NCBI GenBank assembly: GCA_001938485.1
Contig: MQRK01137262.1
Location: 1-55,118 of the forward strand
Direction: 5' to 3'
DNA from: Girardia tigrina
Taxonomy: Eukaryota
DNA: 55,118 bases
The notes below the pieces were generated by a model. It saw nothing but the letters and a program-made list of their open reading frames with translations. It was not told the DNA's origin and did no database searches. Positions 6,050 to 54,953 of this stretch are shown here, piece after piece. Position 1 is the stretch's first letter. The number at the start of each line of letters is the position of its first letter. Made by a program: the position numbers and the translations under genes.

Positions 6050-6390
6050 TATTAAGAACACCAACATGGCTTTTCGAACTTTTATTTTCAAAACAATTAG
6101 AATTGTCTTTTGGACAATTTTCAGCAAAGCTTTCGTAATTCGACATCGTTCTAAATTGAGGAATTTTAGTTAATGTTTTTTAATAAACAATTATTCGAAC
6201 AAATTTTTATTATTTTCAGATTTTCTTTTTAAAGTTCAAATTTTGTAATTTTATTAATAATTTTATCTACATATTAATTTTATTTAAAAAAATGATTTTA
6301 TGGGAAGAAAGAACATTTATTTAATTTGAAACTTAGTTAAAAGCTATTTACTTTATTTAAATTTTTAATATGAAAATTTGAAACGATTAA
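6050..6390 (-). mobile_element. Solo/partial LTR, family B
   Basis: Same-orientation homolog of 47192-47530. Homology ends sharply at ...GGTGTTCTTAATA (minus strand) in both copies. Confidence 0.55.
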
Positions 6391-6423
6391 TACGTCATCA
6401 ATGTATCATGATGCAGTAAGTTA

Positions 6424-8539
6424 TTTTAGAACGATACTAGACGTAATACTAAATGAAGTACCTACATAAGTATCTAGAAATATTTCATATAGAAATAAAA
6501 AATAACTTCTTGATAAGAATTGTACTGTAGCAGTACCTAAGTTTCTGTTTTTTTCAATATAATTTAGTTATGGATATTTGTTCTTCTCCGAGTGGTGTTC
6601 CCACAGATTCTAACATGGCGGCCTTCGAATTCGGACCACTTGATTTTGCGGCTGATTCCGGAACACTTGAAGAAAGATGATGATTTGGAAATGTTTATCT
6701 CCAACTGTAATCGATATTTCAAGGCAGCGGGAGTCCCAGATAGCCTGAAAGAAACTCTGGTAGTGACACTACTATCACGAGATTTGATTGCAGTGTACGA
6801 AAATACGAGACCTGCCGAAAAAAGTTTCGAAAACAGACTAAGGGAAGCGTTCCAGGTGAAGAAGTCTCAAATTGAAGTCCTACGAGAAGCGGTGGAATTC
6901 AAAAGGACAACAGGTAGTACGACGGAGTTCTTCGCGAAAACCAGGAAAATGGCGGAGAAAATCATGTCCTTACAGTGGACCATCGAGGAAATCGAGAAAT
7001 GCTTATTTTTGAATTGCAATAATGAAGGGGAGACTCGGAAAGAGATTATGATGAGGGATATCAAAGGGAAAGAAGATATTCAACAAATCATAAAAAATGA
7101 ACGAAGTTAAATCGGATCGGAAACTGATCAACGCGGTGAAAGCATCATATGTCAATGTGACGAAATGGAACCATTAATCAAAGGATAAAAAGTTTTGGGA
7201 GAAACGGACATATGGGGAACAACAGACCTGCTGGACTGCCATGAAGTGGGTCATATCAGCATGCAATATCAGAAACAGAGAGATGTTACCTGCTTCGGAT
7301 GTTGCCCGAAAGGTCATATACGACGAAAATGCCGGATCAAATGCACAAGATGTGACAAAACAGGTTACTGCGCGGTCGATTGTTTTTCAAAAGTGAGACA
7401 CGAGACGTATTTTGATACGACAAGGGGTAGAAGACTAGAACGAGATTGGGAGAGTCCGAGACGGTGGATCAACTCGAACAGAAATCCGAGACTGGAGAAG
7501 AACGAGCCAATCTTCGAGTGACTACATCAGGAGAAAGACTAACGAGAGACAGGTAGCAATAATGGACAGAGAGGATGAGGACGTGAGATCGATTCGGATA
7601 TCGGAAGATTATTACCAGGGGATCGAGAGAGGCCGACAATTGGCAGCTGAGGAAGAAAGAGAATGAGAGTACGAGAGAAAAAATGAGAGTCACTCAGTCG
7701 CAGAGGAACCGATCTTGGCGATGGCGTAAGTTTTATTAATGTTTAACCAGTTTATGTAAATAATGTATTTGATAATTATAATATTAGTAATTATAAAAGT
7801 AATAATTATAAAAGTAGTAGTTATAAAAGTATTAATTATAAAAGTAGTATTTTTTTCGAATAATAATAATATTAATGATAGTAAAATAAAACTTCAAAGT
7901 AGATTGTCGAGTAAAGGTATTGTAGTTTCGAATTGTAACAGGGGGAGAACAGAGACTCAGGAAGATTTAATTTGGGGAGATGAGATAGACGAGGATAAAG
8001 GAGAGTCGATAAACAGTAAAAAGAAGAGAAATAATATTTATGAATATAAAAGGTTAGCTGAAACGACGGACAGATGGATGAAATGCTTGGGAGGAGAGAA
8101 CAATAGGGGACCACCAGAGATGATGTCAATAGATAATGAACACGAAGATATTTCTTATAATAAGCTCCAAGGGAGACCGAGCATAACGGTGGAAGTAGAA
8201 GGAATAGGTTTGGAATGTTTACTGGACACTGGTGCGGAGATGAATGTTATAGCAGCTAAGAGCACAAGGAGTTTTAAGTCAGTGACAATCTATAGGACTA
8301 CTCAGAAATTGACAGCAGCAAACGGGTCAGCAATGACTGTTGTAGGAAAAGTAGATGTCGAATGTAAAGTAGGTAAATGTATAAGGAAAGTTAAGTTCGT
8401 GCTAGTGGAAAATTAAAAACCCCATATGATCGGAGGCATGTCGTTGCAACATAGTTTTGGGATAGGGTTGATATGTAAGGTTGATATTTAGTTATGGATA
8501 TTTATTCTTCTCCGAGTGGTGTTCATACAGATTCTAACA
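6424..8539 (+). mobile_element. Internally deleted Gypsy LTR retrotransposon (family C): 5' LTR, PBS, gag with zinc knuckles, aspartic protease, last 54 bp of 3' LTR
   Basis: 54-bp direct repeat at 6562-6615 and 8486-8539 ending TTCTAACA; TGGCGGCC PBS at 6616; gag-like ORF 6592-7110; CCHC knuckles (CFGCCPKGHIRRKC, CTRCDKTGYCAVDC); protease LLDTGA at ~8218-8235. RT/RH/IN are absent. The 5' boundary is approximate. Confidence 0.85.
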
Positions 8540-10842: not shown

Positions 10843-11035
10843 ATGAATTGCAAATATTGTATCATTCTCTTGACTTATTACGAAAAAGAAAACCTGCTGA
10901 TCGTTATCAATTTATTCGATAAATACTTAACCGAAAATAAAATTGCCTATGAATTAATTATCGTCGATGGCAACAGTTCCGATGGAACAAACGATGCTGC
11001 GATTAATTTGCAGAAAATTTACGACAATCAGCCTT
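10843..11035 (+). pseudogene. DPM1: Dolichol-phosphate mannosyltransferase (DPM1, GT2) N-terminal fragment
   Basis: MNCKYCIILLTYYEKENLLIVINLFDKYLTENKIAYELIIVDGNSSDGTNDAAINLQKIY aligns with DPM1 KYSVLLPTYNERENL...YEIIIIDDGSPDGT...LEKIY. Conserved PTYNE and DD are altered, and similarity stops before the DxD motif. Confidence 0.8.
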
Positions 11036-11494
11036 TAGTTGATTCTCTAAGCAGACCTTTCAATTTGAATGTTCAACATCATTTGATGGACGGGTCTTAT
11101 AATTCGTCCGAGACGCCGAATATAATCCCTAATTATTGCCTCGATCACTTTGGCATTATTCTCAAAATGATTCTGAGCTCGGTGATTGACGAAAGTCTTT
11201 TCTCTTTGGTACCCGTTTTAAAATGATGTTTGAGAATTGAAACTGAGAATTACAGAGTTATTTTTACAAATAAAATTATTCACGTCGACTTTCTAAATTG
11301 TGTTTTGAAATCAAAATTTTGAACAGAAGAAATATTTTTATGGTATACCGATTTAAATATTTTCGAGTGTTCAGTGGAGTAGCAATTCCTTGAACAGTTT
11401 TGTAATCTGGCGGATATGATCGCCAATCCGACGACGAGTATCCGACTTGCAAAACGAGAGCCAACTAACAAAAAGATTCCCTCAGAGATACAAC

Positions 11495-13410
11495 ACCTGG
11501 TGATGTCATCATCATCCATTTCGAAATCATTGAACCATCCAGCAACGTAACGCGCTCTTCTTGACCACCCTTCTACTAACTCAGAGACTGACTCGCTCTT
11601 CTCATCGTCACTCGGCATTTAAGTATATACTAAATTAGGGCGTTTTCCACAATTCTTGGTCGCCGCCTTCACGAACACTGTATCCCCAGACACAAAATCG
11701 ATCTTGTATTGTTGTTCATTCCATAATTTCCACGTCAGAAACCGCCATTCATACGAATAAACACCGTTCCTAGGAACCGAATACCTATTTAGCCCTACTT
11801 TCGGGGTCACGTTATAATAATACACCATGTCTAGCACATCTCCACCGGATCCTACCGCCATCCCTTTAATAGTACTATGGTTCCCCTCGACAATACCGTT
11901 TCCTGACGGGCGATATGCACATTGATACCTCATTGATACATTCCATGTTCTACAAAATTCCTGTACCGTTTGTAAACGGAAACCTTTACCGTTATCACAT
12001 AACTCTCACTAAAGATTCGCATCCTATATTTCCGCGATGATATTGACACTTTCACTTTTGACCCGTTTCCAGATTGCAAAATGACTCGGTCCCCAATCAA
12101 TACTTGAGAAGAAAATTACCCCCCCAAAATGTGTAATGTCATACGCTAGGCATTGCCAAGTTCTTGTTACTTCCAACTGACTTCTAGGCTATAGCACAAC
12201 ACATGCCTCAAGGGACAAACACCGAGTGCACCCTGCCACCACCTTGGCAACTACACTCTCATCTGCCTTTCTACAGATCTTTTTGACTGCAAAAAGTGTT
12301 CTATTCACACCAAAATTATGAATTGCATGAATAGCTCTCACCTCTTCCCTAACAGCAACTTTCCCAGGAGTAGCTAACATCATGACTCTTTCTTGCTTGA
12401 AAGGAAAGCTGGTCAGAATATCAGCTTTGTGTTGGGTCTCCGGGAGAAGATTGTAAATTTCTCGAAGACCAAACAAAAATTATTTCCGCTGATTCGACTG
12501 ATCTAAGGGATGTGCTTTCCTTGTGCTATATACTGATATCGATGAATTTCTTTTCTTTTTCCTGTATTCATACATCATCATTTGTATGTTTTCAATCTCC
12601 TCTGCCTTCGTTACCCCGTGAATCGCGATCTCTTGATCGACGTTATCATCGTCAATCATATTAGCATAGACCAAGTTTGATAGTTCTTTCTTACCAAAAT
12701 TTTTCTCCACTAATTTTTCGATTATCTCATCTACTTTGCGGAACGCAAGTGACGGGTCACCGCAACCTACTCTTAACTCTATTAGATCTTTCATCAAATC
12801 CAAAATAGATTTTTCTTTTGAAATGCTGCTCGCATTTTCTCTTCGCAAGTACTCCCTGGGGCCTTCTCGTATCTCAGAATCGCATCTGGAGTCAAGTAGG
12901 GTGTTGCCAGTAGGATTTTTCTCTCCTCTGATAATCCCATAATCTTTGAATACCTGTTAAAACTTATCAGGAATTCTTCTAAATTGTGTTCGGATCCATC
13001 GAATGTTTCTGAACCTTTGATGTTCGGAGTCACGTGGTGTGAAGTCGCCATGTTAAGAGAACTCACACATTTGACAGAACATTTATTACATTCACATTTC
13101 TTATCATCTTTATGATGATCAATAGTATTGCTGTCACTTAGATCCATCAATCGATTTTCAATATCTCCCATTATAATCTGAAATATATTTGAGAAGATTA
13201 TTTTATTTAAGAATATTTAATTTAAATTTTATTGGCTGAAATATTTTTATAGTCACTTTTAAATATTAATTTGATTTTAATTATTTAAAAATTTACAAAA
13301 ATAAAATCAATAAAATTATTTAAAAGTGGCAATAATAAAAATTAAAAATTTGAATATTAAATCTATTAAATAAATTAGTTTCAGATTATAAGAAATTAAA
13401 TATTTATAAT
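11495..13410 (-). mobile_element. Internally deleted Gypsy LTR retrotransposon (family A): 5' LTR end, PBS, gag, integrase
   Basis: LTR end TTAACA|TGGCGAC at 13051/13050; gag (ETFDGSEHNLEEFL...) 12480-13171; integrase HHCC (HAIHNFG...CTRC) and DDE motifs (YDITH, CDNG, GNGIVE) 11619-12430; RxRxxxxWxxDF pol tail. PR/RT are deleted. Confidence 0.85.
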
Positions 13411-14810
13411 CCATCTGGTTAGGAGAAGCACAATCCAAAATAAACATACAACATTTAACCATGCAAACACTACACAACAACATCCACACACCAAATATTC
13501 CTCACAGGGATCTCATTTTACATCTGTTTTTACCTAATGTCAGAAAGTACTATAATTGAATTTTCCCACTGAACACAAATTTATTTTACAGAAAATTTAA
13601 AGACATAAACGTTTTTATAAGAAAATGAGAGACTCAAAGTGTTTATTTATAATAAAAACCGACCTGACTAAAATTTATGTGAAAAAATCAAAAATGTATT
13701 CTACTGTATTATGATACTATACCGTATTAGGCTTTAAAACAACTTCTAGAGTTTTCTCATGTTTTCATCAGACAAATCATCTCGATTTCTTTTCTTACTT
13801 TGTAAGTTTAGAGCTGAATGTTTGCCTCGAAGCAGCCAAGAGTCTACGTGCTTTGTAGAATAAAAATATTTTATTGGAGGGCCGACCATTCTGATGAATA
13901 AAAGTGCCGAGACTGTTTTTTGTCATAAGCGAAGCTCTCGTTGGGGTGATTATCAAATTCATTTGTGAGAATCCCCTTTCACACTCGCTGAAAGAAATGG
14001 AAATTGTATTAAGAGCATGTATCAGAGGAAGAATTCTTTCAGAATATGTTCTTTCCGTAAGATAATCACGGAATCCATGAATGATTTATCTTGCGTTAAG
14101 TTGCAGCCTACTACATAATTTCTCAATTTCCGCTTCTCCAAATGTCAACTGGTTGTTCATGTTATCTGTCCAATGGCTCTGATCTAGTATGATAGTCCAC
14201 AGTAATCTTTTCGCAATTGATTCGCTAAGTTTTTCGTTAGAGACATTTACAACAATAGGAGGGTCATTTTTGCAGTTTCTGTTGTGTAGTACAATTTCAT
14301 TTAATATTAGATGCTCAGCAGCTGCTGTTGCACTCTTGTAGTATAGGCCTGGATTTTCCCTTCGTTCCACGAACACCTGTACGAGTGATTTTATTTTTTG
14401 ATTCGCTTTATAAAGATTCATGTTTCGCTGCTGTAGGTCCAAGCTCAATTCTGATAACTCTTGAAGAGCATCACATATCAGACCAAGATCCATCACAAAT
14501 TCAGTTGATGCTATTTTCTTCTTCAACCCTTCATATGTACATTTATCATTGTTACTTCTTGTGAGATCAGTCATTGCTTCTTCAAAATGATTTACGAGAG
14601 CTGCATAATTATTCCAGACTGCAAACACTGTACAGAAACTTGACGAAACCCATCGTGTACTTAAAACCCGTCCAATTTTTCATAACTCTACTTCAAGTAA
14701 TTTAGCATATGAATGCAGTTCTCTACTATTTCTTGGAGAAGCATGGTATATTACTTATAGCCTATCAAGGAATGATTTAAATCTATTGACTCCTAAAACT
14801 TCCTTTACAG

Positions 14811-15681: not shown

Positions 15682-16918
15682 TTGGGTTGAGGAATAAGTT
15701 CCCGCCTTTTTTTGAAAAATGAAAATTTTATTTTTTAACAAAAAAGTTACTAAAAATTAATAACAAATATAATGTCCGCCATTATTCACGACTTCTTCCC
15801 AACGTTCAACGAGTTTTTCAAGGCCTCTTTGGTAGAAATCGCCTGGTCTTGACTCGAAGAATTCAGCCAACCAAACTTGCGGTTCTCCATCATTGTTGAA
15901 CGAAACACCACGTAAAGCGTTAAAAAGCGAACGGAAAAGATGAAAATCAGATGGAGCCAAGTCAGGTAAATACGGAGGGTGCGGTAACACTTCCCAACCA
16001 AGCGTTTGAATGGCTTTTTTTGTCATTCTGGCAATATGAGGACGTGCATTGTCGTGTTGCAAAATAAGGCCATGTTGTCGATCCGGATGTTTTTGTCTTA
16101 TAGCGGCGTTGAATCTATGCAGCTGTTGAACATAAAGTTCTGCGTTCACTGTTTGGTTTTCAGGTGGTTCACGACAGTTTTTTGATCACAATCCATTTGT
16201 TCCGCCAATTCTCGAGTGGTTTGACACGCGTCTTTATGCAAAAGTTTGTTCAAACGCTCTTCATTGAATTCATTTGGTCGTCCTGAACGAGGTGCATCCT
16301 TCAGGTCAAAATTGCAAATTTTAAATTTTGCGAACCAATTACGAGCGGTTCTATGAGCTATAGCACCTTCTCCGTATACAGCAAAAAGCTCTCGGGCAGC
16401 GTCTGCGGCTTTGGCGCCTATTATACGCAAACAATAGATGGTGTCGGAAATGCTCATTTTTGTCGACTTGATACTCCATTTCAATGGTCTAAAAATCGAC
16501 AAAAATTAATCTAAATAAAAAAACAAAATACACCATTTTTTAGAGCAAAACAATAGCTTTCAAATAGCATATAACATTACATCAAAAAATTGATTTAAAT
16601 ATTAAATTGATTAAAAATTCAAAAAAACGGCGGGAACTTATTCCTCAACCTAATATATATTGTTCCATTCCTTATATTAACTTACTTTCTATATACTTTA
16701 AAACTTCCAATAATCCCCTGGGGATTATATAAATTCATTTTTTTAAAAAAAGTTGGAAAAACAAGGACATGGAGGATTATTAGAAATTTTTAGAAAATCA
16801 AATTTATTCATCGATTTCTGAATAGCTAGATTCCGAAATACATTACATAAAAAATTTGATTTAAATATTAAATTGATTAAAAATTCAAAAAACGGCGGGA
16901 ACTTATTCCTCAACGTAA
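15682..16918 (-). mobile_element. mariner (DD34D) element, internally deleted, with duplicated 5' end (TIR ends at 16653 and 16918)
   Basis: TIR TTGGGTTGAGGAATAAGTTCCCGCC and two inverse copies; TA on both sides; transposase pieces with PRSGRP, HDNARPH and PDLAPSDFHLF. Confidence 0.92.
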
Positions 16919-20180: not shown

Positions 20181-23100
20181 GTACGAGTTTTATTTTATGA
20201 GATTTTATTTCTATTTGTTTCTAAAAAATGATTTCGATAAAAATCAAAAGGAAGCCAAAAATCCGCGATGTTCTGCCTCTCATTATGTGGCGTTGATTAA
20301 AGCGTTAAATAGCGGCAAAAGTGTGAAAAAAGTAATCAATCAAAAATTTGACATGAGAAAACAATCGATTTATTGTCACGTTTCTTTACAGAGTTTCAAT
20401 AGGAAGAGTGAAGATGATCCAGTGCATGTTCTGTCGGCAATTGAGGTGTCGTTACGTACGAATAATGTCGAGTAATTATTGGATTTAAATGATGAGAGGT
20501 TGAGATTAGGAGCGTTTTTGTGTCGAGTCTTTTGCTATTTATTTGGGGGTTTTTTGATTATCGAGAGATTTGATAAGGCTAGCTTGAGAAAGTAATTCTA
20601 GAATATATTTCGATAATTTGTAATCTTCCTCATCTCTTAATTTCTGTGGGATTATGAATGAAACCGAGTTATTTTTATTAAATAAATGCAAACAGAAGAG
20701 TTAAAACAACAATTTCATTAATTATCAAGAGATTTATATTGGAAGAATATAAATTTAATGACACAAACTTAAGAAAGTTATTCTAGAAAATGTTTCGACT
20801 ATTTTTTTATATTCATCATTTACTAATTTCTATCTTATTACGAATATAAAAACCAATAGTTTATTTATTAAATCAATACAAAACAAATGAATTAAAGATT
20901 TAACTTTAAATTGATTTTAATGATTTGTAATAACAATAAAAAAATTAATATTGAGATTGCTTTACTTGCCCATTTTGGATATTATTTAATACAATTCGTA
21001 ATTGAGATCAGGGTCATCTGTACTTTACATGGAGCTTTATTTAAGAATGTCTAGTGATAAAGTTAAAAATAAGATCTGTTTAGAAATGTAATTGTAAAGT
21101 TTTGAAGAAAACCAAACAAACGTTAATTTAATTAGCTAGATTTTTTTTCAATAAATGTTTCTAAAAATAAAATTATAAAGTTTAGTTACTTAACCAGAAC
21201 GGAAGATTAAAAAGGAAGTAGCTAGAATCACCAAACAGAATAAGTGGGGCTTTAAAAATTAACCATTCGTAACTCAATATCTTAAAAAAACATAAATATT
21301 GTGTGAAACAGTAGCTTTTTGTAAATAATGAAACACGTAATTTTTGTTTTTATTGATCTTTAACATAAACATATAAAAAATTATAAAAAAGGGAGTGTTA
21401 CAGTTCTGTCACATTGTGTTACAACGCTACAAAATGATAATGATACAACAATATTTCAATTTATTTTATATAACTAAGTAAATAAAATCCAAAATAATCA
21501 ATTTACCTTTGTGTTTTTTCAAAAATATCAACAATATCAATAGCACAAATATTTTTATTTTTTAAAGAAATTTGCATACGCGCACTCCACATAATGTAAT
21601 AGAGAGAACTGTCAAATTCATCTTCCTACCACCAACGCCATCTGTAGGTACTAATAAATCACCGATGTTGTATAGATCGGTGTGTAACACATAGGCAACA
21701 GTGATTTAAAATGTGATATGTTAATAGTTAGAGATCCTGTAAGAGTTACAACGGTTTGTTACAGAAGTGTCACACCATGTTACAAAGGGTTCATAATTGT
21801 TTGGAACACAATAAATTTCTTTGGAACACAATAAAATGTTTTATTTTCTTTCTTTTTATTAGTTATGATTGAGACCACTTTTATTCCTCCGTTAGATTAT
21901 CTGATTTTTGATTAAAGTTCTGAATTTATTTTATGATTAATAAGTTATTAATCAAAAAATAAATTCAGAACTTTAATCAAAAATCAGATAATCTAACCGA
22001 AGAATAAAAGTGGTCTCAATCATAACCAATTAAAAGAAAGAAAATAAATAAATGACAATACGGCATGAGTTCTACCTGTATTATCTACAGATTATTAGAC
22101 GAATAATTTCATAAATTTCCGGCTGACAGTTATGTTAGTTGTCAATCTTGGCTGTGGGAGTGAAAAAATGAAGGTTCTAACTTCTCCATGATTGATTTAA
22201 AGAAGGCATATTTGTTAGTGAAGATAGCCTCAGACATTTGAAGTATCAAGCAGTTATTTGATGAGAAATTTTGGGTCAGTCTGACGATCACATCGAAAGT
22301 CATTTCTGATATAGTTGAAACCATACTCAGTGAGGAGCTTATGATTTCTGCATCGGGATACATTGATGACGTATTGATTGTGGAAGTCTGTTGTAATGCA
22401 GATAAGGTGACAAGAATGTCTTAGCTGTTTGGGCTGGAGTCTAAACCAGTGGAAAGAATTGGCTTAGGCAAAGATATAGGATGTTTGGACTGAATGTGAA
22501 AAGCAATTTACAGTAAAAAAGAGATCAATATCTTGTAACTAGAGATCTTGATAAGGCAACGAGACGAGAAGTACATTGAAAATTCGGGGGAGTAGATGAG
22601 TCATTTACCAGTTGAGGGATTGATATAGGTTGTTTGAGTTTACTTTCAGAGACTGACAACAAAGCATAAGATAAACTGGAATGAAGTAATTTTTTAAAGA
22701 GGTATTAAAATGTCAATTAAACCAGGGAGAGGTTTATGATTGATGGAGATCCTGAAACAGGCAAGTTTGTGATTAATTTTAATGATAATGTTGACAGATA
22801 CAAGTATGATGTAAGGTTCTTGTGTTAAAATATTTTTATTTTATTTTTAATAGCAAAGATAAAATATATTAATAATAAGGGTTAACCTAATGCATCCTTC
22901 TTTTTAATCCGTGTCGTTACGTAATCACAAAATAAAAATAAAATTGGCAAAACGCCCATTTAAAATTTGGATATAGTTTAAAGTTTATATATATATTAGA
23001 TAGAATTTGATGTTCAAAACCAATACATTTTGAGAACTTTAAAATTTGTTTAAAATCTTATTAATTCTTGAAAAATAGTTTGGCGTAAATTTTTCATTGT

Positions 23101-26100
23101 GTATATCATATATGTTTCTGAGATTTCTTTGACTATATTATAAGAGGTTAGTTTCAGATTTCAGTTAAAAAATGAATTTTAAACCCGACTTACCATAATT
23201 ATACACACAGTTAATAAATTTTGGACGTGAAAATTGGATTATATTTGGATGCATTATTACACTTATCATTTTCATTTATTTAAGTAAAATATTGGATTGT
23301 TGCATAAGTTCCCGCCGTTTTTTAAACATTTATTTTCAAAGAAATCAAATAATTTTAACAACCAAAATAATGACTCAGTTAATTATATATTTAATGAAAT
23401 CATAAAATTTTAACAGCAAAAATAATAACACTTCAATCAATTATGTACTCTCCTTCATTGTACACTACTTCTTCCCATCTTTCCACCAGTTTATTGATTC
23501 CATTTCGCCAGAAATCCTTAGGTCAAGTCTCGAAGTTGTTGAGCCAATTCTCAAGATGATCCTGATTTTCCTGATGATGATCCTGATCCATCATTTCATT
23601 TGAAAGACAGCGGAAGAGATGGTATTCCGTCGGGGCGAGGTCTGGGGAATAAAGAGGATGTTGAAGGACCTGCCAACCGAGCTCTTGGAGTGCCATCTTG
23701 ACAGTTTTTGCGGTGTGTGGTCGAGCATTGTCATGGAGGAGGATCACCTGGCCTTGTCGATCCGGTCTTTTTTGTTGAATTGCCTCATTGACTCTATGCA
23801 ATTGGGCTTTATAGAGATTCTTTTCTACTGTCATGTTCTTTCCAAGCATTTCCCAATGGATTAAACCTTCCCAATCCCACCATACACAAATCATTGTCTT
23901 CATCGGGTGTAGGTCTTTCTTGATCCTGGGCTTAGGCTTCTCTTCAAGACTCATCCACTTTTTTCTTTGCTTCATATTCACATAGAGACACCATTTCTCG
24001 TCTCCAGTGACGATTCTGTATAAGAAACGTTGCCTGTGGCCATTGGTTCCTTGGTGTCGAGCGAGATTTTGAGCAGCAATGAAAAGCCGCTTATCCTTCT
24101 GTTTTTGGGTGAGTTCGTGCGGGACCCAAGCTCCAAGCTTTTGAGTGAAACCCATCGACTGAAGATGGCGTGAAATTGTCGCAAAATCACAATTCATCTT
24201 TTCGGCCAATTCTCTGCATGTCTGGCGGCCATCTTCCTTCAAAAGATCCCCGAGTTGGTCCTCGTCCATCTCGACTGGTCTTCCGGAAGTAGGAGCGTCG
24301 TTGAGGTCGAAATTATCGTGTTTGAACCTGGCAAACCAATCCCCAGCAGTTCTCTCAGCTATAGCGTCCTCTCCATACACGGCACAAATATCTCTGGTAG
24401 CTTCACTCGCTTTTTGACCTCGATTAAAGGTGAAAAGAAGGAGGTGTCGAAAATGCGATTTTTTGTCGACTTGACAATCCATTTGACGGTTCTAAAAAAA
24501 GACAAAAAAATAATATAGGCAAAAACGATTACTTTAATCTTGTAATTACTTTAATTACTTTAACTTCGCCAAACATCAAAAAGTCTTTGTAGAACAAATA
24601 GTTTCATGTAACGACGGGAACTTATGCAACAATCCAATATAATAAAAAAACGAATTAAAAGTCATGCATATCTAAAGAACTTTTAGTAAAGGTACCTTTG
24701 CATTAACTGTTTAGTTTTGAAGAAATTTTGTATTAGGCATATTTTAACTGTTGTTAAAAATTTGTTAACTCTATCTATAACTATGATAAATTTGTGTATA
24801 TATACTTAAAGAAGAATTTGTATAAGTTTATAATTGTTGATGATGATGTAACTAATCGAGACATTTTAAATTAAAATATTTATTGATTATATCCAACTAG
24901 GGTGAACCCGTTTCGCCAGGTCTGGCGATTTTTTTTATTGACTAAATCCATTTTTATTAATATTTACATGATTATTTTAAAATCAATGTATGGCGGGGCA
25001 GATCCGAAATGATGATATTTCTATGTCGAGGCATTATGGATAGAATACTTCAAATCTGCCTCAGAATATTCCTATATCGAGGCAGTATGAAATCGCATCC
25101 CGGATTGCGACCGATTTTCCCCCGAATCCGTGTCAAAAAATATGTTGGGGCACGACGGAAATTATTTAATGAAAATAATTAAATTTGTTTTACTGAACAG
25201 CGGGAACTTCACAGACAGAAATCATAATTCTATTATAAAGATAATTAGCGATCAAAAACTCAATAAAATAAACATAAATTTAATAGAATAACATCTTCAA
25301 AGTAAATTATTATTCTATGTAACATCATTTGACGGTAGACTTGCAACGTTTTTATTCAAATATACCAAAAATCAGAGAAGAGACGAAATATCGCTATTAT
25401 TTTTGCTACAAAAATTCTTTTGTAGAAATTCCTTTTGGCATCATCAAAGTATTTTCAAGTTCTTTACCTTCAATTTATTCATTGAATTTCGAAATGAGAT
25501 GATTTCGAGTTGACATTTAACACATACCATTGAAAACGGGCTCTGTTTACTAAATTAATTTTAATTTACAATTTTCATGTTATTTAAATTAGATAAATAT
25601 TTATTATTGATAAATACTTTAGTTAAAGTCGTTTTTGAAGTTATAATTATATAATAAAACTATAATTTATTGATAACCAATGTTTGTCTTGCAAGAGTAG
25701 AACACCATCAAGGTTTATATTCACATTTCTGGTGGCATTTCTGCGAATCTATATTGATTAGGCACTTAAAATAAATACGATTGGATAAAAATGACAAAAA
25801 ATAGTTGGAGAAGTGTAAATTAAAGTTTTCAAATATTACAATATTATATGGAATTTATTATTTGATGAAAATTACTTAATACCCTTAACATGAAAAGATT
25901 TCTAATTTGAACCTCTCATTGAAAAATATTATCGAATTGATTTAATTAATTTTATTAGTTGGGTTTACGATTTTCTTAATAAAGATGGATTGGAGGTTTT
26001 ATTGGATTACATGTCGAAAGCTCTTGTTATATTTCTCAGGTTGGATTGTATTTATTAAATAAATTTTGTTTTTTTAGTATTTATTTGATAAAAAATATTT

Positions 26101-27598: not shown

Positions 27599-30500
27599 TA
27601 TATTTATATATAAAATATCTTACTGATTATAAACCGTACAATAATACCTTATAATTATATTTTTGAATAAGAATATAGTATAGAAATCTTATCAAAGATT
27701 TTATTTCTGAAAATTTAGTTTAAAAAGTTGTTGTAATTCCTATGAACAATAGTTTCGAGTCAAAGACCAAAAGTTAGGAGAGATCAAGTATCACAAGTAA
27801 TTTTAAGAAGCAGAAAATTGAATCACGCATTTGGTTAGTTACTTGTAAATTTATTTCATGTCGATTGTCATTTGTTTCAAGTCCCGACACTGTCATTTTT
27901 CGCGACTCCCAGAATCATTCATGACCCACGGTTTAAAAGAGCTCAAATCCATCTCTTAATTAACTTAATACTCTTTCTTAATTTGAGCATTGAGAATGTT
28001 GACCCTCCACAAAATCTTACATATTTTCTCCCTTGTATCAAATATTTTGTTTATTTCCAAATATATGTAGAATTTCGATTATTATCTCTATTTTTGATAT
28101 TTGATTATTTCAATAATTTATTTATTATGTCATCTTTTTATTGTTTGTCAAATGAATTTGAATACCGATTGTTATTACACAACCATTTAAAAATTTTTAT
28201 TTTATAAGTTTTATTTTTAAGTACGCTAGGATGAATAATTTTTTTATCGCCTTTCTTAAAGCGTTCGGTGTTCTGTACATCCGTGTGCCTGAATTTCTCA
28301 TATTCATTTGAGTATCTTGATTTATATTCTATTAAAACCTAAGAATTTAAATATAATTTTGGTTAACTTTAAGAAAGAACAATAATTATTTCATATTAAG
28401 TCGTCCATGAATCGAAATGTCAATTTTTTTTCTTTATTAAAATTAAAGCAACGTTATTACTTCTTTCAAATGATAATCGTCTCCCCTTATGAACTTCAGG
28501 AAATTGACTTGGAAGATCAAAAATTAAAAAACCTTTAAGTACCCATGATTGTACTTCTTTCGAAGATCATGGTATTAGCATACTTTTGGATCATTGTTGT
28601 TAAGTTCGTGGTTGTGTTTTGTAAAAACTCAGACGAAGACATTTTTGAAACTTTTATTTAATAACAATAATATAAATAATATTTAACCAAGTTTTGTTTA
28701 AGTAAATTTCTAAGGAACACTTTTTCATTTTTCTTGCACAAACCAATAATACCAAAATAAATTCTAAATATGAATATATAGTTTAATTAAATGTAAATTT
28801 TATTATATTTTAAATTTTGTATTTTGTATTTTTAAAAACTATAATAATTTATTGAAACATCTTTTTGAATATATTTTTTATATTTTTAATTTAACGTAAC
28901 TTAATACCTTATTTTGTATTTTAAATATTGTATTAATTTTTAAAAAAGTTGTTTAGGTAGATTTTAAGTCAAAAATTTAGAAGTTTCCCAACATCCTCAA
29001 AATTTGTATTTACTTTATCTATGAAAAATTGATTTTAATTAATATACCTAACATTTAATAAATAATTGATTATTGTTATTCGTTAACCTTTTCCTGCCAG
29101 ACTGAGAATTTAAATAGTTATTTAATTTCAAAATTTATTTCCTTATAATTATTGATTTTGGTATAATTTTGTATTTTAATCATATCAAATTATGTATTCT
29201 AAATACATTTTCTATTAGTGTCTTAGAGGGAGACCTTGACAATTCACGTTACAGAAACCACTTGGCAGTAATAGGGTTATATATCGTCTGTATAACTAAA
29301 TAATACAGCATCGGAATTTACGCCGCTTATTTTCATTCCACTTCCAGAAACTAAAATTTATTCTTTATTTAAATTTATTTTATCATTCATAATTTTTAAA
29401 ATTCTTTCCTAATTTAGGAACTACTTATTTAGATAATAAATTGAATCATAAATATAATTTCTAAATTTAATATTAATGACAATTTTATCAAATGAACATT
29501 TTTTTTCTCTATTACCCTCAGGATGATTTAATATATAATTAGAACTTAAGAAAACCTAATATTTTCATTACTACTTATTTATTAAACGAAAGGTCGTTAA
29601 AAGATTCTTAAGTCTTCGACGAACCCTTCGATCTTCCATCTTTCCAGATCATATGAGTTGGTTGACCATAGAACATCTGAAATTTATTTTATTTATATGT
29701 GAATCTTCACATATTTTTAATTGCATTATTTGATTACTTATTTCACTGAAATACAATTTATGCCAAATTGTTGATTATAATGAATATTTATGTTATCACA
29801 AGATTCTATGCATAATTCAATCCATATTATAATATACTATTAATAATCATTTAAGGATTAGGTAAACTTATTGTTTACTATTAAAACTGGATCAGATTGA
29901 AGCCAACCATCGAGAATACAGTTGTGTAGCCAAAGAACATTATTCAAATTATAGGCGATAAAACATATATTACATCAATGAAGAAATACCTGATCGGAAA
30001 AATGTCACAAACAATTAAAAGATACTGATCTGATGACAATTCGAATTATGGTTTCTTTATTATTTTAGAGAAATGACACGAAGAAATAGAAAAAAAAGTT
30101 TAATTAAAAGTTAAGAAGAAAAGAATCCGCAAAATAGATACAAAAAGTTAACCAACAGAATATCATTAAGGTGACTGTCAATGAGCTGACAGCACAACTT
30201 GTTCTTACAAAACTTCATTTTTGGAGAGCAAGTGCTTGCACGAATAAGTATTGCCAAACATGGTGATACCACGCTTCTCTTTCATACAAGCACCTGACAA
30301 CTTGAGCAGCAGCCAGTCGTAATGAGAGTGGTAACGAAACTGCGACAATTCAATTAAGCTGGACCCAACAATAAATAATTTAGGGGGAATAGGTCTCACT
30401 GGAATATTAGTTAGACCGGAGTTGGCCAACTTCTGGTTTAGATTAATAACATACATGATTATTAAATACTTCGGAAATAAAATCTGCTATTTCGTGGAGT

Positions 30501-46380: not shown

Positions 46381-49300
46381 TATATTCCTCCCTATAAAGA
46401 AATAAAGGTAGACGTAGCAAAGGTTTTAGAATGATTTAAAATTATTCTGACATAACACTATTAAAGAATTATTACTGAAGCATCATAAACCATGCTAAAA
46501 TATGAAAGGTGATTTATCCCATTACATTAAAGTATTTTAAAGCATGTTTTCAAGAGATATAACGTAATATTTTTCAACGATATAAATATCAATTACTTAA
46601 GATACTGTAATGGCAGTGAAACCGTTTTGCATTATCAATATTTTTTATTCTTTGGATTATTATCAAAGATATTGTTATTCTAGATAATATATTTGAAACA
46701 ACTAATTTTTATTCTTTATTGTCCATAAATAAAAATCTTTTATTAATATTAAGTAGTACGTAAGAAAAAAATCCATCCGTGACATTTAAATGCAGATGAA
46801 ATAGACAGTCGACAAAAATAATTAGTTTGCTAAAGAAGACAAGCTTAGCATTTACAACTAGAAATAGCAGGAATTGAATGAAGAATATTTATGTCTAATT
46901 ATAATAAAAAACAACAAATTTATGTCCTAATAAAAATGGTTAAAAATATAAGAAAAGTTATACAGAATAATACACAAAAATGTCAAGGTATATCATGTGA
47001 TTAAGTACAAAGTATTTATTCTTTTAAATTTCATCTTCTTAATCATGTATGAATGAAGACACATTTATTATTCCTTATAATCATATCAATACTCGAGGTG
47101 GACAGATTCGATTCTATGTATTTCAATAGGTAAACGAAGAGTATCTTTTTCAAAAACCATTATTAACAAATAGAATTACAAGTTTATAGACTATTAAGAA
47201 CACCAATATGGTTTTCTACACATGCACTTTCATCATAATTTGAATCGTCTTTGGGACAATTCTCAGTTAAGCTTTCGTAATTTGACATCTCGCTAAATTG
47301 ATAAAATTTTGTTAATGTATCTTTAACAAACAATTATTTGAACAAATTTTCATTTTAAATCATTTTCAAATTTTATTTTCAAAATTCTACGTTTATAATT
47401 TCGCTACTAATTTAATCTAAAAATTTATTTAATTTTAAAATGATTTTATTTATTTTTAAATTTAAAATTAAGTTTAAAATTATTTACTTTATCAAACTTT
47501 TTAATATTCAAATTTTACAAGATTTAATATTTTAAAAGTTTTTAAATATCTTACGTTTAATATTCAACAGAAGTTAGAATGTTTGAAATCAAAAACCTAT
47601 CCAGTTCTATATTAACGTAAATATAATTTTTAAATTATTGATTGGACAGAAAATTTGACAATAACCGAAAAAAAATGATAATCTGATAGATAAATGTCTA
47701 GACTCCAGACTAGACGGTAGATGTGACAGAATAACCCGGGAAAATTATATCGCTGGTGTTGTTTACAATATGTAGTCATGCGTTATTATGGAGCAGTAAA
47801 ATTCCATTTATGTTTTCAAATAAAGCTCTGGTGAACTATAGTAATCTGAGCAGAATTTTTATGTCTCAAGAAGATAATCCACATAGACGATTTCCAGTTA
47901 ATTTTAACAGCCCATAGCCATAGTTTTGCTCTGAATATCTTTATTTGCACTTGTTTCTGGAGCAACCTATCTTGGATCCGTTGCCGTTATCTTAAGAGTT
48001 TGCAATAGGTCACCTATTTTATGTCACAGTTGAAAATTTGATCATTGAAAGGATTGCTAGTTGAACATGCAAACAACTTTAGATGGTGAAACGAGTTATT
48101 TTTTTGTTTTCTCTCAACATATACGATAGTCAGTTATCGAGCTTTAAAAAAACCAATACCATGAAGGCGTTTACTGACAGTTCATTTATCACATTATGAT
48201 AATTTCGCATTTGTTACATTTTGCTTGTGTATTTTCATCCACACAGTTTCAAATGTCTTCGCCTTTACATGCCAATGAACACCATGAATGTGACTAGTTT
48301 TAAAGATTTTCAATTTCCTGATTTAAAGTGATGAAACTGAAAACGTTTACAGAGTCTTAACTTAAAGCATTTCGTATTTTTCTGGCAGCTTCAGATATGC
48401 TTTTTCACTATTTTTTGTGCAAAATAGTATAAATTTGAAAACTTTAATGCTCCATTTGATGTGCAAAATAATTACTAGTAAATTTATTATTTAATGTAAA
48501 AATGTTTTCATTAAAACAAGCAAAACAAAAACTTTCAAAAACTAAGTAAGGTTTACAAAAAATTGGTATGATTTTCCTTTGTAATGGTATAACAGGAAAA
48601 ACGTTAATTACTTTTTTCGGTGCCTATGACATAGATATATAATGATTGTATTGATTACAGAATTTCTGTCGACAAATAATGAAAACAAAACTAACACTTA
48701 TTAATCAAAGTATGATTCTCCTTTTTATTGATGTACAAGGGAAAAATAATTTTCCGTTACATAATATGTATAATATTTGACAATTGGTAAGTGATACTAT
48801 CTTTATTTTACATACTTACCTATCTAATCTGCTCCATAAACTTATGTTTAACAACAAAGGTATTTAATTAATATACAGATATTGGAAGATTTTTCTGTCA
48901 ATCCCTAATGTTTGATGTAATATTTACTAACATGATGATAAATTCACAAAGATACGTGAAAGTTGCTCATAGGTACAAGTTCTATAGAAATCAAGAATTC
49001 CGTATTGAATAACATTTATATGTATGCTTTCTTAGTCTTATTTTATTTATATGTCTACTCATTAGTATGACATTTAAATTCAAGTTTTAAACAAACTTAG
49101 CGTAAAATATCATTGGAATTCAACATCGAAATACCGGTATTTAATATTAATGATCGTTTAACGCTAATTAATGAATGCATTGAAATAAAATAATAGGAAC
49201 AATTTTTGTTTGTCTTTAGAACTCGTGTTTCTGGTTTTAGTTATATATTTAATTAAAGTAATTAGTCAATTTTTATTGTACTCGTAAATATACGAAATAA

Positions 49301-54016: not shown

Positions 54017-54571
54017 GTAAAATAAAAAAACTGTTTATTTAATAATCTAAATTATTTCTTTTGATTTGTAAATTTTGGATCATTAAGAGTTACAAACTAA
54101 CATTTTGATCGGATTATTATTTATTTATGTAAATCATACAAATAAGGATTATATATTTATTTTTAGTTCAACAACTTGTGATATCACATTGTTAAGATAT
54201 TGATGGAATTTCGATCTTACCGATACATCCTTTACTAGATTCAAATCTCGATATCATTGTTTTATAAGAAAGCTCATGGATTATTTTTCATTGCAAATTG
54301 AAACTAAAGAATAGAAACAAATGAAACACTAAATTCTTGTCAATCAAATCTTGTTAAATGATGTCCCATTTGAGTTGAAAAGGTGATCTACAGATGTAAT
54401 TATTATAATAATTTGTATTAGTTATTCTTTACAGAAACAATAATTTCTTTCCAGCAACCTTTTCTATCTTGTCAATTAATGGCAACTAAGATTTATCGCT
54501 TTTATCTGAATTATCTTCTTTTCTTAAGAAACGATTATTTGGCGGAAGCGATATTATTTAAGGGGTTCCGT

Positions 54572-54953
54572 GACAATTCGACACAAGACAATTCGACACA
54601 CGACAATTCGACACAGACAATTCGACACAAGACAATTCGACACAAGACAATTCGACACAAGACAATTCGACACACGACAATTCGACACAGACAATTCGAC
54701 ACAAGACAATTCGACACGTACAATTCGACACACGTACAATTCGACACACGTATAATTCGACACAGACCATTCGACACAAGACAATTCGACACAGGCAATT
54801 TGACACAAGACAATTCGACACAAGACAATTCGACACACGACAATTCGACACACGACAATTCGACACAGACAATTCGACACAGACAATTCGACACAGACAA
54901 TTCGACACGTACAATTCGACACGTACAATTCGACACACGTATAATTCGACACA
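54572..54953. repeat. 26 x 14-16 bp tandem array (GACAATTCGACAC core), probably the subterminal array of a DNA transposon
   Basis: Units counted by eye. The array starts just after TTAAGGGGTTCCGT, and scattered AATTCGAC copies trail off to the right. Confidence 0.9.

Follow-up and report, generated by a model that had tools for sequence, protein, structure and literature searches.

The DNA analyzed here, referred to as the window, is a 55,118 nt stretch of Girardia tigrina DNA from a 1.43-Gb, AT-rich assembly. Near 13 kb, on the reverse strand, lies one end of a retrotransposon, family A. Its 5′ LTR extends from bp 13051 to 13506 (456 bp, TGTGAGG at its start and TAACA at its end). The limits were placed by homology in 20 copies; 3′ LTR partners were found at loci L003, L008, and L019, and contigs of public runs have loose ends at 13051 and 13506, matching the LTR limits. 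The LTR-encoded Gag leader occupies bp 13052–13147 and has 32 codons, rich in Asp, His, Lys, and Cys; it is predicted to be disordered. The final A of the LTR and the TG of the primer-binding site (PBS) spell the junction ATG (bp 13049–13051), which is in frame with the leader and with gag. The PBS, bp 13033–13050, doubles as Gag codons, and its first 7 nt pair with the tRNA-Arg 3′ end plus CCA. The capsid part of gag (bp 12515–13051) is broken in the window copy: the frame shifts near bp 12820, and homology stops at bp 12515. As homology to family A covers bp 13506–12515 only, 13 kb is a position and not the size of the element.

An earlier note on this DNA had proposed a 40-codon leader starting at the first ATG of the LTR (bp 13151–13171). 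In the window copy the frame from bp 13171 does run into gag. In the rest of the family this ATG opens a 6-codon uORF closed by TGA: codon 7 is TGA in 20 of 20 other fetched 5′ LTRs, which are the best-scoring of 40 scored out of 1829 candidates. Across 28 distinct family-A LTR ends, codon 7 is TGA in 22, CGA in one (the window), TTA in one, and shifted in four, and contigs of four public runs show the TGA at full depth at bp 13153. The 40-codon leader is thus a near-private state of the window copy and no family trait. The family-wide frame starts at the second ATG, bp 13147, and runs 32 codons plus 1 nt; it is open at 20 of the 28 ends. An older subfamily, A2, is present as an LTR fragment at bp 1–326 of the forward strand, with its uORF ATG at bp 211 and its leader ATG at bp 235; the leader of this copy is shortened by a deletion. 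In the 28 ends shown for A2 as a subfamily, the 6-codon uORF, its stop, and a leader of 32 codons recur. In both subfamilies the uORF (bp 13171–13151 and 211–231) stops 3 nt before the leader ATG, and in the window LTR an ATG-free run of about 240 nt precedes it. The conserved uORF may limit Gag output. Its context is strong, so it should hinder the leader ATG, except where transcripts are capped near the uORF or beyond it.

Family B is found twice on the reverse strand: as a 5′-truncated LTR at bp 6050–6392, with a 32-codon leader at bp 6146–6050 and the terminus TAATA, and as a diverged LTR fragment at bp 47192–47553, with a 32-codon leader at bp 47288–47192. Family C lies on the forward strand. 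Its 5′ LTR remnant (bp 6556–6615) has a 15-codon leader at bp 6570–6615 and is followed by the PBS, a frameshifted gag, and the protease region (bp 6615–8482); the 3′ LTR remnant (bp 8487–8539, the 5′ limit being read by eye) has a 15-codon leader at bp 8494–8539. Both family C LTRs are cut 7–14 nt upstream of the leader ATG, at bp 6556 and about bp 8487, so that the leader-bearing end alone is left. The family segregates a 3-nt indel, the leader having 14 or 15 codons. Family D is present as two solo LTRs. The one at bp 1352–1762 of the forward strand has its leader position at bp 1717–1762, with the start decayed to ATA where most copies have ATG; the other, at bp 28598–28999 of the reverse strand, has a leader at bp 28642–28598 that is one base short.

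The eight sites of the window that the earlier note had singled out were confirmed. The distance from ATG to LTR end is 121, 46, 46, 97, 97, and 46 nt, that is, 3n+1, at six of them, and 116 and 45 nt, off by indels, at two. B and D had been called LTRs from their abrupt ends and the shared layout, and LTRs they are. The start TGTGAGG is common to families A, B, D, and K, and 5-bp target duplications are found at 8 of 15 non-PBS ends of B and 9 of 13 of D, some of the rest being 3′ LTRs. The B LTR is about 530 bp long and the D LTR about 400 bp. Both families adjoin PBS-gag, contrary to the outcome that the earlier note had said would refute it: a B-type LTR-PBS-gag pattern gave 669 matches versus 1 in the control (at least two of the matches listed are family A), and a decayed PBS-gag adjoins the family D LTR at L153, L162, and L240. 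That the four families share little sequence was an overstatement, as A and B have in common the LTR start, the leader length, and 67% of Gag residues. The LTRs of families B, Bp, G, and N terminate in TA rather than the canonical CA (55 of 56 ends in B). Family B is abundant, with 5-bp duplications, despite its TA terminus, and the junction ATG and the Asn codon are retained.

The window has other features. Mariner-type transposase frames matching Pfam HTH_48 and Transposase_1 lie at bp 23523–24482 and 16146–16457 (–). A 127-codon frame at bp 10843–11226 of the forward strand has a weak match, below the cut-off, to glycosyltransferase family 2; a search found no longer relative. At bp 21840–22048 is a palindrome with 104-nt arms, 95% complementary and 1 nt apart, and at bp 54512–54896 a degenerate 15-nt tandem array lies within a 189-codon frame that has no Pfam match. 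Contigs C137263 and C99776 carry 100% identical copies of stretches of the window and were treated as assembly duplicates.

The elements belong to the Ty3/Gypsy group. The LTR pairs are direct, with TG...CA ends and 5-bp target duplications, the deviation being the TA end of family B and its relatives; a PBS follows the 5′ LTR, and a PPT precedes the 3′ LTR. In copy L002 the pol order is PR-RT-RNaseH-integrase, with Pfam RVT_1, RT_RNaseH, Integrase_H2C2, and rve above cut-off, which sets aside Ty1/copia (Pseudoviridae), where integrase lies upstream of RT. A Ty3/Arc-type capsid with a CCHC nucleocapsid is present. The Gag profile matches dArc1 (E 1e-4), Ty3 Gag (E 1e-4), and dArc2, and dArc1, dArc2, and Ty3 take the top ranks of a fold search, weakly (E 0.03–0.2). 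The earlier note had proposed a single Gypsy clade, and this is probable: one Gag profile finds families A to P and their metagenome relatives, and integrase identity is 46–92% within the clade and then falls to 24–29% outside it, the Gag tree being unrooted. The relatives retrieved bear no clade names. LTR lengths across the clade range from 157 to 530 bp, and gag and pol are two frames. Self-priming of the Tf1/sushi type was rejected, the best LTR match to the PBS reaching 6–7 of 11 nt when a single copy per family (A, B, C, K, and F) was compared. In families H and I, from a pattern scan, and in L245/L246 the Gag of the clade was not seen, and they were excluded. A further pattern scan stayed at control level (74 matches versus 98). 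Frames of 1100–1500 codons in family K are due to assembly gaps.

LTRs end in CA, and the PBS for a tRNA begins with TGG. Abutting the two spells an ATG automatically. In this clade the LTR end CA (TA in family B) abuts the TGG of the PBS, and the resulting ATG is in frame with gag; the junction Met is invariant in 45 aligned Gags. The PBS encodes Gag residues 2–6, the tRNA-Arg complement reading M-A-T-T-P. The PBS of family K matches tRNA-Arg(ACG) at 18 of 18 nt and reads M-A-T-T-P-G. Matches are shorter elsewhere: 11 nt to tRNA-Leu(AAG) in family F, 7 nt to tRNA-Arg in A and B, and only 5–7 nt to the tRNAs examined in C, D, G, and J. The primer has switched within the clade among Arg-ACG, Arg-TCG, and Leu-AAG (F, K, m252/m260), which alters Gag residues 2–5 and keeps the junction ATG. 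In three copies (L292:760–830, L288, and L289) the PBS is lengthened by about 25–45 nt of tRNA-Arg(ACG) complement, CCA included, as would be expected if copying of the primer had run beyond the point where it normally ends. A family N copy, L248, contains a fold-back (inverted duplicate) of LTR end and PBS. Three tRNA-like pattern matches, L232, L233, and L235, proved to be a repeat instead of tRNAs and were not used in the PBS matching.

Because CA|TGG forces the junction ATG, its conservation is no evidence of its use. The point is illustrated by three unrelated LTR families that share the genome (30 loci, L323–L352, giving 21 distinct copies, plus L247). In these families, which have a Ser-type PBS and which we take to be Mag-like, LTR end and PBS likewise form a junction ATG; unlike in the clade, it opens only 6–7 codons, there is no LTR leader, and a Gag-like frame begins about 48–75 nt downstream. 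Within the clade the junction ATG can likely serve as a start, since leaderless elements (L252/L268 and L261) have an uninterrupted Gag of 395–401 aa from it and long Pol frames. The same codon is the first in-frame ATG in L251, whose Gag is truncated where the contig stops. In a rapid, unrooted tree of Gag (64 rows, pieces of fewer than 100 residues left out), the leaderless elements verified at the DNA level require two changes; one of these nests among leader-bearing relatives, the tree having no outgroup.

Pattern and protein searches for further families were not conditioned on the presence of a leader. In the G. tigrina assembly, 13 families have an open in-frame LTR ATG. Their leaders measure 32 codons in A and B, 31 in Bp, 26 in N, 22 in G, 21 in M, 17 in E, 16 in J, 15 in D, 14 or 15 in C, 12 in P, and 8 in F and K; E, J, M, N, and P are known from one copy each. 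Counted per LTR end, the leader is open in 20 of 28 in A (plus 2 that are longer), 42 of 56 in B, 27 of 30 in C, 16 of 31 in D, 16 of 17 in F, 32 of 34 in K, and 4 of 6 in G. The family D copies without an open leader (12 of 31) are old ones. Two B-related groups have no open leader in the copies at hand, Bpp (0 of 3) and B3 (0 of 5). Dinucleotide shuffles give a chance of 0.08–0.26 of a leader per family, and because the families are related, the product of these chances overstates the case.

At the protein level, a profile of ten Gag pieces retrieved 197 cluster representatives (50% clusters), of which 149 new ones were listed and 94 cover the N-terminus. Among these 94, 61 have an extension of 3–38 residues, 18 start at the junction Met, and 15 have no junction Met in the stretch that the script scanned; 9 further proteins are truncated. 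Gene callers prefer upstream starts, so this leader count is inflated. The residue preceding the junction Met in the 61 extended Gags is N in 54, Y in 4, H in 2, and E in 1, in line with an LTR ending in xACA or xATA. The AAY-A terminus that the earlier note had described reflects nothing beyond the integrase end of the LTR.

In 27 close metagenome loci the junction is visible in 16, representing 13 families; a leader is present in 10 of the 13 and absent in 3. The LTR limits were fixed by a second LTR copy (L264, L265) or by the PPT in circular contigs (L252, L255, L257, L261, L266, L268, L273). The families of L264 and L258 also occur in the G. tigrina assembly, so at least two of the families are not from independent hosts. 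Among close relatives, L257 combines a 264-bp LTR with a leader of 12 codons, L261 a 157-bp LTR with none, and L273 a 384-bp LTR with one of 21 codons. Their gag DNA is 71–77% identical and their leaders have little likeness; L261 misses most of the leader region that L257 has. The layout is real and clade-wide. At the level of sequence it is of the Ty1 type, an in-frame LTR ATG being open through the PBS.

The composition of the leaders bears on whether they are translated. In 20 leaders (318 codons, first and last codons excluded) there are 0 in-frame stops, versus 13 and 47 in the other two frames, and three-base periodicity is marked (chi-square 143). Asp plus Glu make up 17% of residues versus 6% in stop-free shuffles, and Phe, Ile, Leu, Tyr, and Trp 15% versus 34%. 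No shuffle of 1000 was as extreme, and the result holds separately in the A group, the other G. tigrina families, and the metagenome set. Lys plus Arg are clearly depleted only when the sets are pooled and in the metagenome set. In the same frame upstream of the ATG, 238 open codons have 4% Asp plus Glu and 47% of the five hydrophobic residues, like plain AT-rich DNA. This switch in composition argues that the ATG marks a real coding boundary, and the leaders are likely translated.

What is selected is a separate matter. The net pN/pS of the leader is 0.60 (A1 versus A2) and 1.09 and 1.41 (A versus B), with intervals that span 1, and that of 60 gag codons is 0.23 (0.12–0.40). Leader dS is 0.93 versus 1.53 for gag, so nucleotide-level constraint on U5 may inflate the leader ratio. 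Variants shared within families (27.5 nonsynonymous, 8.5 synonymous, no stop) are too few to decide. The earlier note had seen a selected, fast-evolving leader and had itself counted a ratio near 1 against it. Fast variation is borne out, and frame and composition are held; selection on residues is not found, the values near 1 being of the kind it had named. Selection thus probably holds the frame and composition of the leader, not its residues. AlphaFold agrees with a structureless tail: in a family-A copy, residues 1–40 (leader plus PBS-encoded) have pLDDT values of 50–55 and no secondary structure, versus mostly 85–98 for the helical capsid. A simple simulation of neutral capture yields 13–40% leader-bearing families, versus 61 of 94 and 10 of 13 seen. 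This excess requires either common descent with lock-in or a benefit.

We propose, with a probability of about 0.7, that this is a Ty3/Gypsy clade in which the gag frame extends from inside the 5′ LTR through the PBS, with translation in most families likely starting at an LTR ATG and giving Gag a short, predicted-disordered, acidic or polar N-terminal tail. In most families an upstream in-frame ATG lies in the last 10–115 nt of the LTR with no stop behind it, and this ATG would be the working start of Gag. Selection would keep the leader open and the tail harmless, with few hydrophobic or basic residues, whatever the residues are. Once an upstream start had been captured, out-of-frame ATGs would pile up behind it, making a return to the junction start costly. 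Under such a lock-in model leaders would persist and drift in length, and the junction ATG would act as the fallback start in elements that had lost their leader or had never acquired one. It weighs against the proposal that the ATG-free run ahead of the leader ATGs is 14–158 nt, not clearly beyond chance, and that the contexts at –3 are mixed.

Signals near the leader ATG were also considered as landmarks and set aside. A candidate splice or trans-splice acceptor (YAG) precedes the leader ATG in A, B, C, and F, but D, J, K, and other families lack it, so it is not general. Run contigs over bp 12700–13560 showed neither a joint nor a loose end in common, though such contigs could miss a splice. 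A poly(A) signal, AATAAA or ATTAAA, lies 4–66 nt upstream of 17 of the 20 leaders, and also within B leaders, but is common in AT-rich DNA. In seven public runs, all contigs and six of them only guessed to be RNA (5–12% of words), depth tracks LTR copy number.

A more specific suggestion, which we regard as tentative and rather unlikely, is that the upstream start was selected because it takes initiation away from the primer site. On this view the start codon that the clade had originally sits under the CCA end of the primer tRNA, ribosomes starting upstream would sweep the tRNA or its 3′ fragments off the PBS, and use of one ATG or the other would switch the RNA between translation and packaging. 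If this were true, terminal-repeat DNA would be a recurrent birthplace of new protein N-termini.

The earlier note had read the two in-frame starts as a source of two selected Gag isoforms, a long one from the LTR ATG and, by leaky scanning, a short one from the junction ATG. In favor of this, the bases around the junction ATG make a strong context, mostly with A at –3 and G at +4, and often a stronger one than at the leader ATG; three intact leaderless families have no in-frame ATG ahead of it; and no out-of-frame ATG separates the two starts in C, F, K, M, and three metagenome leaders. But LTR end and PBS together leave the junction ATG no choice but to be conserved, and in the three unrelated families it opens only a dead-end uORF. 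Moreover, out-of-frame ATGs between the starts number 2–5 in A, B, Bp, G, and N and 0–1 elsewhere, 23 in the 20 leaders. A hand estimate from codon-position composition gives about the same number, so nothing indicates that selection keeps the second start reachable. Ribosomes could leak through to the junction where leaders are short, but hardly in family A, and selected isoforms, which these counts do not favor, seem to us improbable.

Still less probable is a leader that is a functional module, with selection that is positive or acts on motifs; its specific job could be, for example, to bind metal through Cys and His in the A group or to form a spike on the capsid surface. In its favor, several Cys and a V/L-x-x-L-N pattern at the C-terminus persist in the A-group leaders from one subfamily to another, leaders occur much more often than neutral capture would give, and 44 of the 61 protein leaders are net acidic. 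Against this, no motif is clade-wide, length varies from 3 to 38, dN/dS is near 1, the leader is predicted to be disordered, and L257, L273, and L261 have leaders of 12, 21, and 0 codons with little likeness. That the leader is untranslated, with U5 shaped by DNA or RNA needs and Gag always made from the junction ATG, would fit the dN/dS near 1, the leaderless families, and the uORF ahead of the family A leader, but it is very improbable given the three-base periodicity, the 318 codons without an in-frame stop, the composition switch exactly at the ATG, and the up to six ATGs that scanning would have to bypass in family A.

The closest precedent for translation from an LTR ATG is Ty1 of S. cerevisiae (Pseudoviridae). 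According to the accessible text of PMC4974528, Ty1 GAG starts upstream of the PBS, so that the PBS lies inside the GAG frame; there and in the accessible text of PMC5454406, the 5′ UTR is 53 nt and the PBS is near nt 94–104. In the clade, as in Ty1, gag starts in the LTR and encloses the PBS, here known from sequence. Unlike Ty1, the clade has the order RT-RNaseH-integrase, a tRNA-Arg or tRNA-Leu primer, and an in-frame ATG formed by LTR end and PBS. Ty1 is of another superfamily and is primed by initiator tRNA-Met, and the accessible portions of the two papers describe neither leader turnover nor a leaderless state for it (PMC4974528, PMC5454406). The clade resembles Ty3 and Drosophila Arc (Metaviridae) in its matching capsid profile and in having gag and pol separate, overlapping in –1. 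It differs from Ty3 in having the PBS inside gag; the Ty3 PBS is bipartite, adjacent to the UTRs, and outside GAG, as the available part of PMC4974528 has it. We found no description of the layout in a Gypsy clade in a search of mostly listings, as opposed to repeat databases, subscription papers, or supplements. The accessible parts of PMC4558846, PMC7175516, PMC6238403, PMC4202319, and PMC3095310 do not describe it, and 'PBS' and 'start codon' are absent from the main text of Parisot 2014 (PMC4202319) as far as that text was available. A Ty1-like arrangement in Ty3/Gypsy, which we did not find described for that group, is well supported at the level of sequence.

The Ty1 precedent leaves the general view of retrotransposons unchanged. 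What is added is a Gypsy clade in which a few dozen bases serve at once as integrase end, tRNA primer site, and opening codons of Gag. Annotating such Gags from the first ATG of the internal region would miss the N-terminus. The solo LTRs, which number in the thousands by first-look candidate counts, carry a start codon open to the LTR end and could fuse to host sequence. The leaders offer a natural series in which to follow non-coding DNA on its way to a protein tail, with selection acting on frame and composition alone.
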